A stretch of 41,949 nt of DNA from a virus (lineage: Duplodnaviria; Heunggongvirae; Uroviricota; Caudoviricetes): positions 1 through 41,949 of the IMG/VR virus record IMGVR_UViG_2558860473_000005; one strand, 5' to 3'. Positions within the stretch are counted from its first letter, which is position 1; each line of letters opens with the position of its first letter. Below the pieces are notes generated by a model. That model was not told where the DNA came from, made no database searches, and saw only the letters and a program-made list of their open reading frames with translations. Shown piece by piece: positions 3,799-36,641 of this stretch. Both the position numbers and the translations under genes were made by a program.

Positions 3799-5049
3799 TC
3801 ACTCTCCTTTGATGCGAATGCCAGCGGCGCGGATTGCATCGATGACTTCAGAAACTTTGTATGCCATTACCGTTTGGTAATCATCGTGAAAATCTGTTCG
3901 ATGAAGCATGCTGCTACGTTCCGGGAGCAGTATTTCCCGCGCTTCCAGTTCAGCAATCCGCTTCTCTGCTGCTTCCAGCTCATCCAGCAGCGCGTTATCT
4001 TCATCCTCTCTCAACACCACTGTGTCGAAGCTTTCGGCCTGCTTTTTGATTTTTGCAATCAGCGCCTGTTTGTTGATGTTGCTCATTTGGCGGACTCCTG
4101 TGCTCCAAGTTTTGCCCCATACTTCAAGGCTGTTATGCGAAATCAGCGCTTCGCGAACGCATGGCCTGTAGTAGTGATGGAAAGCGAAGGTCAGGCCGAG
4201 TTTTGTCGGGCGATCGTGTTTGCCAAGCAATCCCAGGCGAATACAGATAGTCGTTGCCGTGTAGCCAGAGTGATAGCCAGCAGCACGCTTCATAACTGTT
4301 TCTGCCAGAATGGTGCGGAAATCAGTGCGCCCGAAATTGGTACCTTCGAAAGCGGCGTTAACCACTTCGTCTGTAAGATGTGAATCATCAACTATGCTCA
4401 TACCGCTTCCCCCCTGACGAAGCTGGGCGGCGAACTCGTCGCATACGTGCGTTAAAGAGCAAATCTGGATAGCAGGATGCTCGCGCAACAATTCAACACC
4501 CTGCGCCCGCACTTCAGCCAGGAAGGCGTCGGTGGCTGGGTGCTCTGTCTGGCTATGCATTGCCCATTCAGATAAGTACTCGAAGCAACGGCGAAACTCC
4601 TGCCAATCACTGCACATGTTTAGGTTTCCGCCTTTACACTCGAACTGGTAATTCTCTAAACGGTCTGCAAACGCTCTGCCATTCTCTATGGCACCAAGTG
4701 GAGTTTCAGACTTCAGCCAAGCATTCTCCGCAGCCAGCGCCGCGAGATTAGTCTCAAGCTCTGCAATTCGACACATAGCATCAATATTTGTGTCCTCCAG
4801 GCGCTTAATTTCACCAAGCAGCTCCAGTGCAACCTTTGGGTTGAACGCGGCAACATGACGAGCGTTGTTCTCTGCATTTTTCTGTCCATCAAAGCCGGTC
4901 CATTTGATAACGTCTTCACATCGTTCATCACCGGGCGTGTGCACCGCATAAGTACCAGTATCCGTCGAAATAAATGCGACCCATTCGTCTGGTGTTGCCT
5001 TTTCTGCCGCCTCACGCAGTACCTGATAGTCAATTGTCATTCTCGCCAT
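3799..5049 (-). CDS. Ea22-like (ead/Ea22 family) early-region protein, 416 aa
   Basis: N-terminal IDYQVLREAAEKATPDEW motif typical of Ea22-like proteins; coiled-coil-rich. Confidence 0.7.
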   Translation of the reverse strand: MARMTIDYQVLREAAEKATPDEWVAFISTDTGTYAVHTPGDERCEDVIKWTGFDGQKNAENNARHVAAFNPKVALELLGEIKRLEDTNIDAMCRIAELETNLAALAAENAWLKSETPLGAIENGRAFADRLENYQFECKGGNLNMCSDWQEFRRCFEYLSEWAMHSQTEHPATDAFLAEVRAQGVELLREHPAIQICSLTHVCDEFAAQLRQGGSGMSIVDDSHLTDEVVNAAFEGTNFGRTDFRTILAETVMKRAAGYHSGYTATTICIRLGLLGKHDRPTKLGLTFAFHHYYRPCVREALISHNSLEVWGKTWSTGVRQMSNINKQALIAKIKKQAESFDTVVLREDEDNALLDELEAAEKRIAELEAREILLPERSSMLHRTDFHDDYQTVMAYKVSEVIDAIRAAGIRIKGE

Positions 5050-16744: not shown

Positions 16745-16929
16745 ACGCCACAATTCAAACGATACCAGAGCTTCTTATCCAGACACGAGGCAATCAGACC
16801 GAGGTGGCGAGGATGCTTTCCTGTGCAAGAGGAACAGTGCTCAAGTACAACCGAGACAGCAAAGGTGAGCGTCACGTAATAGTTAACGGCGTCCTGATGG
16901 TCAAACAGGGCAAGAGGGGTAGACCATGA
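16741..16929 (+). CDS. ninH: NinH, 62 aa
   Basis: GNQTEVARMLSCARGTVLKY motif matches lambda NinH by recall. Confidence 0.75.
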   Translation: MNATIQTIPELLIQTRGNQTEVARMLSCARGTVLKYNRDSKGERHVIVNGVLMVKQGKRGRP

Positions 16930-17549
16930 GACTCGAAAGTGTAGCTAAATTTCATTCGCCAAAAAGCCCGATGATGAGCGACTCACCACGGGCTACGGCT
17001 TCTGACTCTCTTTCCGGTACTGATGTGATGGCTGCTATGGGGATGGCGCAATCACAAGCCGGATTCGGAATGGCTGCATTCTGCGGTAAGCATGAACTCA
17101 GCCAGAACGACAAACAAAAGGCTATCAACTATCTGATGCAATTTGCACACAAGGTATCGGGGAAATACCGTGGTGTGGCAAAGCTTGAAGGAAATACTAA
17201 GGCAAAGGTACTGCAAGTGCTCGCAACATTCGCTTATGCGGATTATTGCCGTAGTGCCGCGACGCCGGGCGCAAGATGCAGAGATTGCCACGGTACAGGC
17301 CGTGCGGTTGATATAGCAAAAACAGAGCAGTGGGGGAGAGTTGTTGAGAAAGAGTGCGGAAGATGCAAAGGTGTCGGCTATTCAAGGATGCCAGCAAGCG
17401 CCGCATATCGCGCTGTGACGATGCTAATCCCAAATCTTACCCAACCAACCTGGTCACGCACTGTTAAGCCGCTGTATGACGCTCTGGTGGTGCAATGCCA
17501 CAAGGAAGAGTCAATCGCAGACAACATTTTGAATGCGGTCACACGTTAG
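16926..17549 (+). CDS. Q: Late-gene antiterminator Q (lambda-type), 207 aa
   Basis: Sequence essentially lambda Q by recall, including the zinc-binding cysteines. Confidence 0.9.
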   Translation: MRLESVAKFHSPKSPMMSDSPRATASDSLSGTDVMAAMGMAQSQAGFGMAAFCGKHELSQNDKQKAINYLMQFAHKVSGKYRGVAKLEGNTKAKVLQVLATFAYADYCRSAATPGARCRDCHGTGRAVDIAKTEQWGRVVEKECGRCKGVGYSRMPASAAYRAVTMLIPNLTQPTWSRTVKPLYDALVVQCHKEESIADNILNAVTR

Positions 17550-17591
17550 CAGCATGATTGCCACGGATGGCAACATATTAACGGCATAATA

Positions 17592-17626
17592 TTGACTTTT
17601 TGAATAAAGTTGGGTAAATTTGACTC
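17592..17626 (+). promoter_or_regulatory. Late promoter PR' (-35 TTGACT, -10 TAAATT) with qut region
   Basis: Matches the lambda PR' region by recall; 17-bp spacer. Confidence 0.8.
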
Positions 17627-17820
17627 AACGATGGGTTAATTCGCTCGTTGTTGTAGTGAGATGAAAAGAGGCGGCGCTTACTACCGATTCCGCCTAGTTG
17701 GTCACTTCGACGTATCGTCTGGAACTCCAACCATCGCAGGCTGAGAGGTCTGTAAAATGCAATCCCGAAACAGTTCGCAGGTAATAGTTAGAGCCTGCAT
17801 AACGGTTTCGGGATTTTTTA
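17627..17820 (+). ncRNA. 6S RNA-like PR' leader transcript ending at tR'
   Basis: About 194 nt from the predicted start to the tR' hairpin (ATCCCGAAAC ... GTTTCGGGAT + U-run at 17762-17820), as in lambda. Confidence 0.6.
17762..17820 (+). terminator. tR' intrinsic terminator (Q target)
   Basis: 10-bp stem followed by TTTTTT. Confidence 0.8.
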
Positions 17821-17828
17821 TATCTGTG

Positions 17829-18330
17829 TAACAGGTAAGAGCATTCTCCCTTATGGGGCTTGGCTTAAATGCACCGAGTGCTCTTAGCGTTGTGGCAGCA
17901 CAACGATAGTTTTCGTCAGAGTTGGCGACTTTGCGGTTTTTTAGAAACTGACCACAAAGATAAATGCAAACGATGATGTTGTTCTGATGGCGGCGTAATA
18001 GCCTGTAAGTCAGCAAGGTCTTCCGACTCCTTGTAAACAAATTCGGCGCACTGGCCCGGTGTGATTAATAATGGGCACACAACAGGTAAGAGCATTAAAG
18101 AACTGGCAAAGAGCTTAACGGTCTGCGAAAGCATTTCTTAGTGGCACAACTGGCCGGTACAACTGAGTGCTCTTTCCGGTGTGGTGAATGCGCAGGCTGA
18201 TGCGCGCAGGAGAGCTTCGGAAGAACAAGGTGCCTGTATACAAGCCGGAGATCAGCGCCGGCCACCACAGCCAAATCCACCCAGAGTAAAACCGTTGTTC
18301 ATCCTTACCATTCCCTCAGTATTTTGGGCT
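17829..18330 (+). repeat. Tandemly duplicated, diverged ~250-bp unit in the late leader, marked by AACAGGTAAGAGCATT direct repeats (17830-17845, 18081-18096)
   Basis: 16-bp perfect direct repeat 251 bp apart; each unit carries a GAGTGCTCTT...GTTGTG-like segment. Confidence 0.5.
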
Positions 18331-18427
18331 ACAACCCTCAGCCCATTTTTTAAAGCGTACTTCCACCAAGAACCAGACCTAACCAACTCATTGCTGACAC
18401 TCTGTTGATACGGTGGTCTAGTGCGCT

Positions 18428-18460
18428 TTAAAAAAAGAAAACCCAGCATCAATGGCTGGG
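18428..18460 (-). terminator. Minus-strand intrinsic terminator-like hairpin in the late leader
   Basis: CCCAGC-atcaatg-GCTGGG preceded on the + strand by an A-run, i.e. hairpin plus U-run on the minus strand. Confidence 0.4.
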
Positions 18461-18623
18461 CTTCGTGATATGAGCGGCATGTATTGTTGGCGCAATCCAC
18501 GCCTGATTTGCTCATGAATGCGGTCACGAACAAACCCGTTACAAATCAACCGTAACCCGGATTTGTTCAAGCGACCATATCCATAATTCCTAATTTGAAC
18601 AGATCCCCTTCTGGGGGTAAGAC

Positions 18624-18947
18624 ATGAAGATGCCAGAAAAAAATGACCTGTTAGCCGCCATTCTCGCGGCAAAGGAACAAGGCATCGGGGCAATCCTTGC
18701 GTTTGCAATGGCGTACCTTCGCGGCAGATATAATGGCGGTGCGTTTACAAAAACAGTAATCGACGCAACGATGTGCGCCATTATCGCCTGGTTCATTCGT
18801 GACCTTCTCGACTTCGCCGGACTAAGTAGCAATCTCGCTTATATAACGAGCGTGTTCATCGGCTACATCGGTACTGACTCGATTGGTTCGCTTATCAAAC
18901 GCTTCGCTGCTAAAAAAGCCGGAGTAGAAGATGGTGGAAATCAATAA
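18624..18947 (+). CDS. S: Holin S (lambda S107/S105), 107 aa
   Basis: [39 protein letters not shown]... essentially lambda S by recall, incl. dual-start motif. Confidence 0.9.
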
Positions 18948-19407
18948 TCAACGTAAGGCGTTCCTCGATATGCTGGCGTGGTCAGAGGGAACTGATAACG
19001 GACGTCAAAAAACCAGAAATCATGGTTATGACGTCATTGTTGGCGGAGAGCTATTCACTGATTACTCCGATCACCCTCGCAAACTTGTCACGCTAAACCC
19101 CAAACTCAAATCAACAGCAGCCGGACGTTACCAGCTTCTTTCCCGTTGGTGGGATGCCTATCGTAAGCAGCTTGGCCTGAAAGACTTCTCTCCGAAAAGT
19201 CAGGACGCTGTGGCACTGCAACAGATTAAAGAGCGTGGCGCTTTACCGATGATTGATCGCGGTGATATTCGTCAGGCTATCGACCGTTGCAGCAATATCT
19301 GGGCTTCACTGCCGGGGGCTGGTTATGGTCAGTTCGAGCATAAGGCTGACAGCCTGATTGCAAAATTCAAAGAGGCTGGCGGAACGGTCAGAGAGATTGA
19401 GGTATGA
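18931..19407 (+). CDS. R: Endolysin R (lytic transglycosylase), 158 aa
   Basis: Near-identical to lambda R by recall. Confidence 0.9.
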
Positions 19408-19841
19408 GCAGAGTCACCGCGATTATCTCCGCTCTGGTTATCTGCATCATCGTCTGTCTGTCATGGGCTGTTAATCATTACCGTGATAACGCCATGACCT
19501 ACAAAGAGCAGCGCGATAAAGCCACATCCATCATCGCTGATATGCAGAAGCGTCAACGTGATGTAGCAGAACTCGACGCAAGATACACAAAGGAGCTTGC
19601 TGATGCTAACGCGACTATCGAAAGCCTCCGTGCTGATGTTTCTGCTGGTCGTAAGCGCCTGCAAGTCGCCGCCACCTGTGCAAAGTCAACGACCGGAGCC
19701 AGCAGCATGGGCGATGGAGAAAGCCCAAGACTTACAGCAGATGCTGAACTCAATTATTACCGTCTCCGAAGCGGAATCGACAGGATAACCGCGCAGGTTA
19801 ACTACCTGCAGGAATACATCAGGACGCAATGCCTTCGATGA
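19404..19841 (+). CDS. Rz: Spanin inner-membrane subunit Rz, 145 aa
   Basis: N-terminal TM segment and coiled-coil periplasmic domain; N-terminus matches lambda Rz. Confidence 0.85.
19597..19788 (+). CDS. Rz1: Spanin outer-membrane lipoprotein Rz1, embedded in the +1 frame of Rz, 63 aa
   Basis: Lipobox LVVSAC followed by a proline-rich segment; entirely inside Rz. Confidence 0.8.
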
Positions 19842-20280
19842 TAGCGATAATTCTACTCATCATCCTTCACATCTGGCTCTGTAGACAGGGTGGTGATCAC
19901 TTCTGGAGTGAATCCAGATTAAACATCTCATTGCTGATGCTTGAAGTTAAGCATATGGCGCGCGGCAAGGGGCTGCGTTGAGATAAGAGCCAGTTCATTA
20001 CAAAGCCTATCTACGGGTGGGCTTGATAATGAAACCGGAATTTATTCTGGGTAACCAGTTACGGCAGTACAGCGAAACAACCCAAGCCAGAAAGTGGGGA
20101 AATAACACTGGCAGCCACTGAAAGATGAACCTCCAGCCTTATGGCAAAAAAGATTCTTTGTGGTGGCGGACTGATGGAAAGACATCGGATAGAATAAAAC
20201 AGTGGCTAGGGTAGCTGCCGAAAAGCGGAATCGTCACCGCCTGCCACTGAATCTATGACGAACAACTAGACGAGGTTGTG

Positions 20281-20442
20281 ATGAAAAAGTTTATGCAGGC
20301 ATTGGCTATTATCTTAGGAGTTGATACTGCTAGAAATAGTGTCGCTGAGGATGTGATTCTTTCTGAATTGGAAAGAGAATACCGCCTTAACACCTTACAA
20401 ATTAAAATTCTTAAAGATATTTCAACTTTTGGTCGCTACTAG
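20281..20442 (+). CDS. Small hypothetical protein, 53 aa (MKKFMQALAIILGVDTARN...)
   Basis: Hand-translated; GAGG-type RBS upstream; AT-rich; below the ORF-track size cut-off. Confidence 0.4.
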   Translation: MKKFMQALAIILGVDTARNSVAEDVILSELEREYRLNTLQIKILKDISTFGRY

Positions 20443-20452
20443 AGTTTGGATT

Positions 20453-20617
20453 ATGAGTAAAGATCCGAAGGAAGGTGTTGAATACATCACTGGTGCTGAT
20501 GGTGTGAAAAGGCCAATGGCTTATTACAAAGCGGCTGAAGAGAGGGCAAGAATGGAAAATACCCCCAAATGCGGATCATTTTTCGACATGCTGAACCTTC
20601 AACAATGCAAGTTGTGA
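20453..20617 (+). CDS. Small hypothetical protein, 54 aa (MSKDPKEGVEYITGADGVKRP...)
   Basis: Internal ATG of track ORF 20429..20617, 10 nt after the upstream ORF stop; followed by a terminator. Confidence 0.4.
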   Translation: MSKDPKEGVEYITGADGVKRPMAYYKAAEERARMENTPKCGSFFDMLNLQQCKL

Positions 20618-20625
20618 ACAACTAA

Positions 20626-20650
20626 CAGGTCGCTCAGGCGGCCTTTTTTA
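20626..20650 (+). terminator. Rho-independent terminator after the two-gene mini-cassette
   Basis: Hairpin GGTCGC-tcag-GCGGCC followed by TTTTTTATT. Confidence 0.5.
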
Positions 20651-20756
20651 TTGCCATCACAAAAGCCATTCCCTACAGAGTGGCTTTGATAATGGCTTAT
20701 ACCCTACACGGGATAACTTAACTGATATCCCTTTTAACGGATAAATGGAGCCAACA

Positions 20757-20999
20757 ATGGCAGAGATTATTCCCATGACTGAAGAACAGAAATTCCAGTT
20801 AGAGATTTACAAACTGGTCATGAACCAGAACGCAGCCGCAGAAGAAGCATTTCAGTTCATTGGCACTGACGAGCTGAAGCTTGAGCTATTCAAAATTCAC
20901 TTCCAGTCAGGCGGCGCTAATTCAGATATCACGACCCGCACAATCGAAGCGGTGCGTAAATCGAAGGAAGCGTTAGACCTGTTCACTACCGGAGCATAA
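20757..20999 (+). CDS. Hypothetical protein upstream of the terminase genes, 80 aa
   Basis: GGAG RBS 6 nt upstream of the ATG at 20757 (track ORF starts at 20745). Confidence 0.5.
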   Translation: MAEIIPMTEEQKFQLEIYKLVMNQNAAAEEAFQFIGTDELKLELFKIHFQSGGANSDITTRTIEAVRKSKEALDLFTTGA

Positions 21000-21001
21000 A
21001 C

Positions 21002-21442
21002 ATGGCGCGCCCAACGAAGTATCAAGAGGCGTATGCCGAACAGGCACGCAAACTGTGCTTGCTGGGCTATACAGACGCCGAACTCGCGGACTTCTTTGAA
21101 GTTAGCGAGGCAACAATCAACAATTGGAAATTGGAATATCCGGAGTTTTTAGAGTCCATAAAAAAGGGTAAGGCCGTCGCTGATGCAGAAGTTAGTGATC
21201 GTCTTTATCAACGCGCTATGGGCTTCGTGGCTCCAGACATCGATATTCGTGTTATTGAAAACAGAATTGTCGAAACTCCGCTTGAGAAGTATTACCCGCC
21301 TGATACAACCGCCGCCATCTTCTGGCTTAAGAACCGACAGAAGGATAAATGGCGCGACAAGGTTGATCACGAGCTAACAGGCAAAGACGGCGGCGCAATT
21401 CAGATTGAAACATCACCGATGAGCACTCTATTCGGAAAATGA
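21002..21442 (+). CDS. Terminase small subunit (Sf6 gp1-like), 146 aa
   Basis: C-terminal GKDGGAIQIETSPMSTLFGK matches the Sf6 small terminase by recall; directly precedes the large subunit. Confidence 0.8.
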   Translation: MARPTKYQEAYAEQARKLCLLGYTDAELADFFEVSEATINNWKLEYPEFLESIKKGKAVADAEVSDRLYQRAMGFVAPDIDIRVIENRIVETPLEKYYPPDTTAAIFWLKNRQKDKWRDKVDHELTGKDGGAIQIETSPMSTLFGK

Positions 21443-36573: not shown

Positions 36574-36577
36574 AGTT

Positions 36578-36609
36578 GAAGCCCCAACTGCTGGAACAGT
36601 CAGGGCTTC
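36578..36609 (+). promoter_or_regulatory. Extended hairpin in the arc-ant intercistronic region
   Basis: GAAGCCC...GGGCTTC with inner ACTG/CAGT stem; no U-run on either strand. Confidence 0.35.
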
Positions 36610-36641
36610 GGTATCAACAAAACTTACGAGGTATTATTGAT

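Follow-up and report, generated by a model that had tools for sequence, protein, structure and literature searches.

We analysed a 41,949-nucleotide (nt) window of viral DNA (IMG/VR record IMGVR_UViG_2558860473_000005, positions 1–41,949), which stems from a P22-like (Lederbergvirus) E. coli prophage and in which two small open reading frames (ORF1 and ORF2) and an intrinsic terminator occupy positions 20281–20650. The explanation we favour, at a probability of roughly 0.6, is that these form the cargo and close the 3′ side of a moron-type accessory cassette that carries its own boundaries and sits in the hypervariable Rz–terminase region. From about 20190 to 20650, this cassette comprises a −10-like hexamer, a leader RNA of the int-alpA class, a hairpin bearing the Shine–Dalgarno (SD) sequence, ORF1, ORF2 and the terminator. 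A first-pass annotation, made from the sequence alone, had drawn the boundaries too narrowly: the unit starts at about 20190, with the hexamer and the int-alpA leader, some 80 bases upstream of 20281.

What that annotation had observed is confirmed, and its interpretation is partly supported. Two ORFs of 53 and 54 amino acids (aa) are present, with exactly 10 nt between the stop of the first and the start of the second, and are followed by a terminator; they lie between Rz and the head genes, after holin, lysozyme and Rz and before DUF2560, TerS and TerL. ORF1 is AT-rich as described, with a G+C content (GC) of 34.6% against 46.6% for the window, whereas ORF2 (43.6%) differs marginally. The proposal of a post-lysis, moron-type variable accessory site with its own terminator also stands, in that the same flanks carry different cargo in relatives. 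As a baseline for chance, 61 ORFs of at least 30 aa overlap the 5 kb around the feature, and the terminator scan by itself is at expectation (2 found against 1.9 expected). The feature rises above chance because both ORFs match PHROG families over their full length, ORF2 is under purifying selection and the terminator hairpin is conserved in distantly related phages.

Small genes are exchanged between a conserved leader and a conserved terminator

No phage record covers 80% of 19800–21050, and in relatives of this region mosaic joints fall at 19996–20007, at 20283 and at 20459/20627. Three pieces are conserved: piece A ends at about 20004; piece B (19996–20283) is non-coding and ends exactly at the ATG of ORF1; and piece C begins with the terminator. 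The interval from B to C holds ORF1 and ORF2 in the window, in L001 and in L136–138. Elsewhere it holds ORF2 joined to the slot's ATG (LF82 and Gally), a 71-aa DUF551 protein or an 80-aa ORF, the last followed by a second, decapitated slot that carries ORF2.

Among 5426 complete E. coli genomes, the full stretch 20230–20670 is present in 4, and the half comprising ORF2 and the terminator (20459–20670) in many more; bare flanks with a DUF551 gene between them also occur in E. coli. The leader itself is present in 51 of the 5426 genomes, where it is followed by ORF1 and ORF2 (4 genomes), DUF551 (26), an ORF of the 80-aa type (16) or an unannotated ORF (5). The backgrounds in which the ORF1–ORF2 block is found vary as well, with slot 1 empty or occupied by DUF2829, GIY-YIG or Rha, and with three types of terminase. 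Enterobacterial phages whose Rz is 39–53% identical have, directly after Rz, the same leader, one uncharacterised ORF of 58–89 aa and the same terminator hairpin AAGGTCGCTNAGGCGGCCTTTTTTATTG; these ORFs differ from phage to phage. Both ends, leader and terminator, are conserved and recur in many enterobacterial lambdoid and P22-like phages; what changes is the ORF content enclosed by them, and the joint falls precisely on the start codon.

ORF2 is an older selected gene and ORF1 a later insertion

ORF1 is a later, AT-rich insertion between the ATG of the slot and ORF2. The insertion point lies exactly after that ATG, the conserved SD and ATG of the slot are used, and 12 nt of the ancestral ORF2 cassette were swapped for 175 nt directly after the start codon; in LF82 and Gally, ORF2 is fused directly to the slot's ATG ('MVSVNKDPKEG...'). 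ORF1 matches phrog_8360 over its full length (E = 1.5e-41), a family of near-identical members. Its homologues form one 90% cluster only in a word-indexed search of 5.8 billion proteins, and tblastn found no match in phage records. The exact sequence occurs on 262 contigs, and 5 variant sequences are spread across about 269 contigs, the copies being 98–100% identical; no frame-breaking variant was seen among them, and their variation is too small for a test of selection. Wherever ORF1 was found, the 54-aa ORF2 comes next (about 260 contigs, 25 variants). Because all ORF1 copies come from one insertion, this co-occurrence is uninformative about dependence, and since that insertion took place late beside ORF2, the two genes are linked by position and not by co-evolution.

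ORF2 is an older, selected small gene that moves with the terminator. It matches phrog_5425 over its full length (E = 3.3e-43), and its core has a ratio of nonsynonymous to synonymous substitution rates (dN/dS) of 0.07–0.15 at dS of 0.6–1.4, indicating strong purifying selection. It is conserved as a coding sequence, the opposite of what the first-pass annotation had considered fatal to its reading. That annotation had looked to conservation and co-occurrence across prophages, and here the outcome is divided: ORF2 is kept as a coding gene, but independently of ORF1, whose copies are near-identical. The ORF2 family is small and enterobacterial: at 90% identity it comprises 19 clusters, an exhaustive hidden-Markov-model search of 1.84 billion representative sequences recovered 7, and its alignment has 19 invariant columns. 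The C-terminal tail GSFFDxL(D/N)..W(P/K)(F/L)-COOH is conserved, with W changed to C in the window allele, and may be a short binding motif. One relative, P0024, joins an ORF2-type C-terminal half to a CxxC...CxxC N-terminal domain.

Relatives of ORF2 that are 65–75% identical occur in two other settings, one close to Q in metagenomic lambdoid phages and one in Yersinia prophages. In the former (L011–L015; for example L012 3916–4208), ORF2 homologues lie 76 nt after the stop of Q and are followed by the same terminator hairpin. A promoter-like site overlaps the end of Q in these loci, and after the terminator come a tRNA-like sequence and then the holin. In the Yersinia prophages, the ORF2 relative stands between Rz and the terminase genes behind a different ORF of 63 aa. 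A remnant of the slot's terminator hairpin (AAGGTCGCTTAGGCGAGGCT, L007–L010, about 3975–4000) supplies the SD of ORF2 there, which suggests that tandem cassettes were joined within the terminator.

Plausible ribosome-binding sites had been noted for both ORFs, and this holds for ORF1, which has a strong SD, GAGG, at 20272–20275, 5 nt before its ATG; ORF2 has only a weak GGA, 3 nt upstream. Because of this weak SD and the 10-nt spacing, translation of ORF2 is probably coupled to that of ORF1. The view that neither protein is recognisable is right in so far as neither belongs to a family of known function, with no Pfam, NCBIfam or PADLOC match at E ≤ 1 and nothing below E = 0.6 against PDB sequences; the PHROG families that the two match are themselves uncharacterised. 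Sequence similarity to known anti-defence proteins was likewise not found for either. AlphaFold2 models ORF1, from a single sequence, as an all-helical hairpin (helices 2–12 and 20–52) with a predicted local distance difference test (pLDDT) score of 80, and ORF2 as a beta-hairpin and two helices (pLDDT 74); a Foldseek search of the ORF2 model against PDB and BFVD returned nothing below E = 0.37. No transmembrane segment was found, the maximum 19-residue hydropathy being 1.05 for ORF1 and −0.26 for ORF2, and we rejected ORF1 as a small membrane toxin on this value. A type I toxin was also rejected, there being neither a transmembrane peptide nor a minus-strand promoter-like site in 20200–20700. 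We would describe ORF1 and ORF2 only as independent small accessory proteins, probably protein binders.

An int-alpA-class leader precedes the cargo

The leader, overlooked in the first-pass annotation, matches the Rfam family int-alpA (RF02996) over model positions 1–71 of 71, at 41.1 bits against a gathering score of 35.8 (cmscan; E = 3e-5 for the window), and ends 20 nt before ORF1. The window holds no second copy of int-alpA. Part of the leader's 3′ half recurs at 20106–20122 (17 nt, 82% identity; CACTGGCAGCCACTGAA compared with 20235–20251), perhaps as the remnant of an older leader.

The RNA has the form of a three-way junction. Helix P1 pairs 20200–20206 with 20243–20249, P2 pairs 20209–20211 with 20217–20219 with one mismatch, and P3 pairs 20225–20228 with 20237–20240 (GCGG/CCGC) and closes the loop AAUCGUCA at 20229–20236. 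The junction nucleotides UAG, GAAAA and CU are invariant columns in an alignment of 71 diverse sequences, and the minimum free energy (MFE) fold of the window recovers P1 and shows a further hairpin, P4. Across this alignment the paired fraction of cells is 93%, compared with 67.5% after shuffling, and compensatory changes are found in 10 pairs. P1 is 95.8% paired with 7 co-varying pairs, values inflated by the selection of sequences with at least 6 P1 pairs; P2, which was not selected for, is 79% paired with 3 co-varying pairs.

We scanned IMG/VR and GTDB genomes for the leader core; the instance counts from these scans are among the matches listed. These matches come from Pseudomonadota, Planctomycetota, Acidobacteriota, Bacillota, Bacteroidota and others. 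In 128 of 129 unique instances the motif is followed, at a median distance of 40 nt (interquartile range (IQR) 32–41 nt), by an SD and an ORF of 40 codons or more. The genes behind the leader across phyla include HNH/NUMOD4 nucleases, a Dam methylase, DUF1376, a tail-tube protein, an AlpA-like regulator and many unknowns, which makes the leader a general expression element that is not tied to any single function. In a metagenome-assembled genome of Planctomycetota (L182, 1648–2150), two int-alpA leaders lie 411 nt apart, the first of them before an AlpA/excisionase-like ORF of 89 aa, which shows that tandem leader–gene units exist far outside the enterobacteria.

Two downstream segments can pair with the P3 loop

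In the window, the P3 loop is complementary to two sites downstream of the junction. One is a decoy segment, seg1 (Table 1); the other is the SD flank, GACGA at 20269–20273, in the loop of P4, a hairpin that overlaps the SD of ORF1. We compared these complementarities with those obtained when P3 loops were permuted among sequences (1000 permutations; 36 viral and 66 bacterial representatives), a design used since the MAFFT alignment had the loop and seg1 columns out of register. Loop–seg1 complementarity was present in 20/36 viral sequences (3.6 ± 1.7 when permuted) and 26/66 bacterial sequences (7.0 ± 2.3), and loop–SD complementarity in 28/36 (13.4 ± 2.3) and 52/66 (28.9 ± 2.9), respectively. 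Both complementarities occurred together in 17 of the 36 viral (2.6 ± 1.5) and 23 of the 66 bacterial sequences (5.5 ± 2.0). The observed values were reached by 0 of 1000 permutations in the viral and bacterial sets alike, and the complementarity co-varies over more than 100 distinct loops from viral and bacterial contigs. The site next to the SD lies in most cases within the loop of a small hairpin such as P4. Of 123 instances with ORF-validated start codons, 55 had P4 stems of at least 5 bp, where permutations gave 25 and never more than 38.

Natural variants bear on the same pairings. Among variants of the ORF1 block, an A>C change in the loop at 20230 adds a pair to the SD, and an A>G change in seg1 at 20258 keeps a wobble pair. 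In LF82-type copies the junction has been lost by a clean 58-nt deletion, and seg1 and the SD flank have drifted from complementarity.

Promoter, terminator and boundary palindromes

Hexamers resembling a −10 element are enriched 6–12 nt before the CTAG of the motif (59 unique viral instances), and some instances, such as L124 and L132, have full consensus promoters whose +1 is the first base of P1. Read from sequence, TAGAAT at 20190–20195 is a plausible candidate for a weak cassette promoter in the window.

At the other end, the terminator stem AGGTCGC/GCGGCCT (20627–20644) has 7 pairs, 5 of them G–C, and a loop of 4, and is followed by a T run to 20650; its fold has −14 kcal/mol (z = −2.9). 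The hairpin sequence is common to cassettes in distantly related phages. A 97% match to 20619–20655 lies beside a tRNA-Arg annotation in Enterobacter phage CobraSix and the sequence is also found in a Klebsiella phage, so the hairpin recurs outside P22-like phages.

Two related imperfect palindromes of about 40 nt (19994–20033 and 20653–20696), ending in GGCTT(T)GATAATG, bracket the whole unit, and a direct repeat (D2) relates the 5′ palindrome to 20680–20694. The non-coding piece B begins at the 5′ palindrome. The palindrome motif also lies directly upstream of the leader in L028. The bracketing palindromes may be boundary, promoter or operator elements.

Neighbouring genes and coordinates

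The coordinates of the cassette and its boundaries are collected in Table 1. Upstream, the gene order is a Q-like gene (16926–17549), holin, GH24 lysozyme and Rz (18624–19841) and an ORF of 50 aa, after which about 300 nt without a good ORF precede ORF1. Downstream of the cassette are DUF2560 (20757–20999), TerS (from 21002), TerL (from 21439) and then the portal gene. The 50-aa ORF (19829–19981, + strand), which relatives also have annotated, overlaps the Rz stop; its N-terminus is hydrophobic, and it matches phrog_11822 (E = 3e-37). An adjacent slot lies between the 50-aa ORF and segment B; it is empty in the window and holds a DUF2829 gene in relatives (L001 1777–2256; L004 1264–1764), phage Huey among them. 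'Anti-CRISPR' labels in this region of phage Huey are unsupported by PHROGs, the proteins being DUF2829-like and DUF551-like.

Between the Q-like gene and holin, 17550–18623 comprises about 1.07 kb without convincing ORFs. Relatives have tRNA-Asn and tRNA-Thr there; ARAGORN found no tRNA in the window, and the only tmRNA-like matches, at 17863–18047, were sub-threshold. A sar antisense RNA (RF00262, 66.3 bits) at 36574–36640 on the − strand marks a P22-type immI region.

Table 1 Coordinates of the cassette features in the window
Feature	Position	Strand	Detail or basis
5′ boundary palindrome, imperfect, ending in GGCTTGATAATG	19994–20033	+	inverted repeat I2
−10-like hexamer TAGAAT	20190–20195	+	read from sequence, 3–4 nt before helix P1
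int-alpA RNA (Rfam RF02996)	20199–20261	+	cmscan
seg1 UGACGA, decoy segment	20256–20261	+	complementary to P3 loop UCGUCA 20231–20236
Hairpin P4 ACAACU / GGUUGU, loop AGACGA	20262–20279	+	MFE fold
ORF1	20281–20442	+	ATG 20281 to TAG 20442, 53 aa, 34.6% GC
ORF2	20453–20617	+	ATG 20453 to TGA 20617, 54 aa, 43.6% GC
Intrinsic terminator, 3′ boundary of the slot, hairpin AGGTCGCTNAGGCGGCCT	20627–20650	+	terminator scan and fold
3′ boundary palindrome copy GCCATCACAAAAGCCATTC ... GAGTGGCTTTGATAATGGC	20653–20696	+	inverted repeat I1, upstream of DUF2560

Proposed mechanism and alternative explanations

In the mechanism we propose from these sequence comparisons, the leader would work in cis, its P3 loop being able to pair with seg1, the decoy, or alternatively with the P4 loop close to the SD. 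The choice made by the P3 loop would set the level of ORF1 translation and, via coupling, that of ORF2. During lytic growth the cassette would lie within the Q-antiterminated late operon, where polymerase would read through the terminator; a transcript from the cassette's own promoter would stop there, insulating the head genes. Read-through by the late transcript and stopping of the cassette transcript both follow from established lambdoid biology. The two proteins would be small soluble factors acting independently, most likely each by binding a host or rival-phage protein, and would not be components of lysis or assembly. The conserved ends of the cassette would serve as exchange joints, as the joints seen in relatives suggest.

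A wider reading is possible, although we hold it tentatively and lean somewhat against it in full: that int-alpA is not a small RNA (sRNA) but a widespread, promoter-proximal 5′-leader switch found in phages and integrative elements of many bacterial phyla, in which the P3 loop toggles between the decoy and the SD hairpin and the invariant junction is read by a universal factor or ligand. Together with the shared terminator, the leader would then make up a plug-and-play cassette of enterobacterial lambdoid phages, through which accessory genes are swapped between unrelated phages.

Several observations weigh against the cassette reading and its mechanism. A consensus scan found no sigma-70 promoter on the + strand of the window, where TAGAAT has neither a −35 element nor an extended −10, and elsewhere a −35 accompanies only 3 of 24 positioned −10 elements. 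In the leader, P2 of the window carries a G–G mismatch and the P3 loop pairs with the SD over only 5 bp; support for P4 is modest, though significant (mean best stem 4.33 against 3.67 permuted), and Rfam types int-alpA as Gene; sRNA, not as a cis element. The status of ORF1 as a gene rests on its position, a near-identical PHROG family and low variant diversity, with no support from substitution patterns. Finally, in the Gally prophage of LF82 no gene is transcribed above prophage background and no morons are reported (PMC9928086); this transcriptome is weak evidence, as the LF82 copy lacks the leader core and its ORF2 is unannotated.

The first-pass annotation had taken the two ORFs for a toxin/antitoxin-like or anti-defence pair. 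That they form a toxin/antitoxin or otherwise mutually dependent pair is highly improbable. Their spacing suggests coupled translation, ORF2 stands behind every ORF1 copy with matching contig counts and the block is intact in several phage backgrounds; however, ORF2 with its terminator occurs without ORF1 in at least 19 listed E. coli genomes, and ORF2 is also alone in phage Gally, right after Q in metagenomic phages and in Yersinia prophages, so that most members of its family lack ORF1. This independence of ORF2 speaks directly against a dedicated pair. Since all copies of ORF1 go back to one insertion event at the start codon of the slot, co-occurrence carries no weight, and genes held between conserved recombination ends 370 nt apart would travel together anyway. 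Neither protein has a Pfam, NCBIfam or PADLOC family or a transmembrane segment, and there is no antisense promoter. That ORF1 is non-functional, a recent AT-rich insert staying open by chance, and that only ORF2 and the RNA leader matter, we judge decidedly unlikely. It would fit the single 90% cluster among 5.8 billion proteins, the missing match in phage records, the low GC and a variation too small to test for selection; against this, ORF1 starts exactly at the slot's conserved SD and ATG, shows 5 variants across its contigs where the equally long ORF2 in the same block shows 25, has a confident AlphaFold2 helical hairpin and showed no frame-breaking variant. As one sub-hypothesis on function, the cargo could consist of independent anti-defence factors in an anti-defence island beside the terminase genes, which seems to us rather unlikely, if the least so of the rival accounts. 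Such small, fast-swapping and narrowly distributed cargo is typical of counter-defence genes, and DUF2829, present in the adjacent slot of L001 and phage Huey, is the Tad2 anti-Thoeris family (bioRxiv 10.1101/2023.05.01.538930). This neighbourhood is weak guilt by association for a counter-defence role: the slot class also holds HNH and GIY-YIG nucleases, Rha and DUF551, so that nucleases and regulators share the region and it is not specific to anti-defence. No known anti-defence protein resembles either protein in sequence or, for the ORF2 model, in fold, and proteins needed early would not usually be encoded in the late operon.

Two further alternatives concern expression and the RNA. In one, likewise a sub-hypothesis and one that we consider unlikely, the unit is a moron of benefit to the lysogen that is transcribed in the repressed prophage from a promoter of its own; its products would exclude superinfecting phages, interfere with them or change the physiology of the host. 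The layout resembles that of promoter, gene and terminator, and in L011–L015 ORF2 comes between Q and the first terminator, a place that, by analogy with PR′–tR′ of lambda, may be a constitutively transcribed late leader and hints at constitutive expression in the prophage. Yet the promoter of the window is weak and unproven, no morons were detected in the Gally prophage transcriptome, and where many exclusion factors are located in the membrane or at the surface, these two proteins are not. In the other, int-alpA is a trans-acting small RNA or a DNA-level element whose adjacency to the cassette is incidental. The Rfam type points this way, and the c4 RNA of P1 is a precedent for a leader-embedded, processed, base-pairing RNA. 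We nonetheless find this doubtful: sites complementary to the P3 loop elsewhere in the window are at chance (8 against 5.6 expected, and 4 against 2.75), the spacing to the start codon is tight (the IQR given above), the loop co-varies with the SD flank of its own gene in two collections, and helix co-variation argues for an RNA and not a DNA site. The cassette with a cis-acting leader remains the explanation we prefer.

Comparison with known systems

Both ORFs fall into orphan families that are already catalogued, the accessory site is of a kind known from phages, and the RNA is a member of an existing Rfam family; the cassette is an ordinary moron-type one with an interesting leader, and its proteins are ordinary orphan phage cargo. 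Ruling out the pair avoids a wrong toxin–antitoxin or anti-defence annotation. An orphan Rfam motif that stands at a fixed distance before genes, with a loop that co-varies with the ribosome-binding region, has a function that is directly testable. The leader and terminator also provide a sequence handle with which to harvest the fast-evolving accessory genes of lambdoid prophages, the kind of genes from which new defence and counter-defence proteins usually come.

The moron concept goes back to Juhala and Hendrix, and an 'ant moron' has been described in P22-like phages (PMC2629481). Like lambdoid morons, the present unit is an extra, non-essential unit of the late operon that is present or absent among relatives, has its own terminator and a deviant composition, and shows rapid flux of content. 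It differs from them in that its promoter is only a candidate and that it is delimited by conserved elements, namely a structured RNA leader and a terminator sequence common to other cassettes, and from the ant moron in that the slot lies between Rz and the terminase genes and not at the ant locus.

The main text of Weinberg et al. 2017, the presumed source of the int-alpA motif, does not mention it. The leader agrees with int-alpA, a candidate structured RNA from comparative genomics, in scoring above the threshold and in its conserved three-way junction, and the L182 copy before an AlpA/excisionase-like gene matches the family name. Whereas Rfam lists the family as an sRNA, the RNA here behaves as a 5′ leader: the next start codon follows at a fixed distance, and one loop can pair with the SD flank of that gene and with a decoy.

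The c4 antisense RNA of the immI operon of P1 and P7 is embedded in a leader and has loops complementary to duplicated sites, one of which covers a downstream ribosome-binding site. By analogy, the present leader may be likened to it as a leader-embedded structured RNA whose loop is complementary to sites in the same transcript, including the ribosome-binding region; it has one loop where c4 has two, the resemblance is functional only, and no Rfam C4 match at E ≤ 1 was found in the whole window. Mobile regulatory cassettes of T4-type phages, in which promoter-early stem-loops (PeSL) flank variable ORFs, were reportedly described by Arbiol et al. in 2010. They share with the present cassette short conserved regulatory elements that bracket hypervariable small ORFs, with apparent recombination joints, but belong to another phage group and use other elements; here the element is a three-way-junction RNA of about 60 nt conserved across phyla, and recombination is deduced from the joints. 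With type II toxin–antitoxin modules, lastly, the pair has in common two short, adjacent and tightly spaced genes on a mobile element, and it differs in that co-occurrence is not obligate, toxin and antitoxin domains are absent and the proteins are smaller than those of typical modules.

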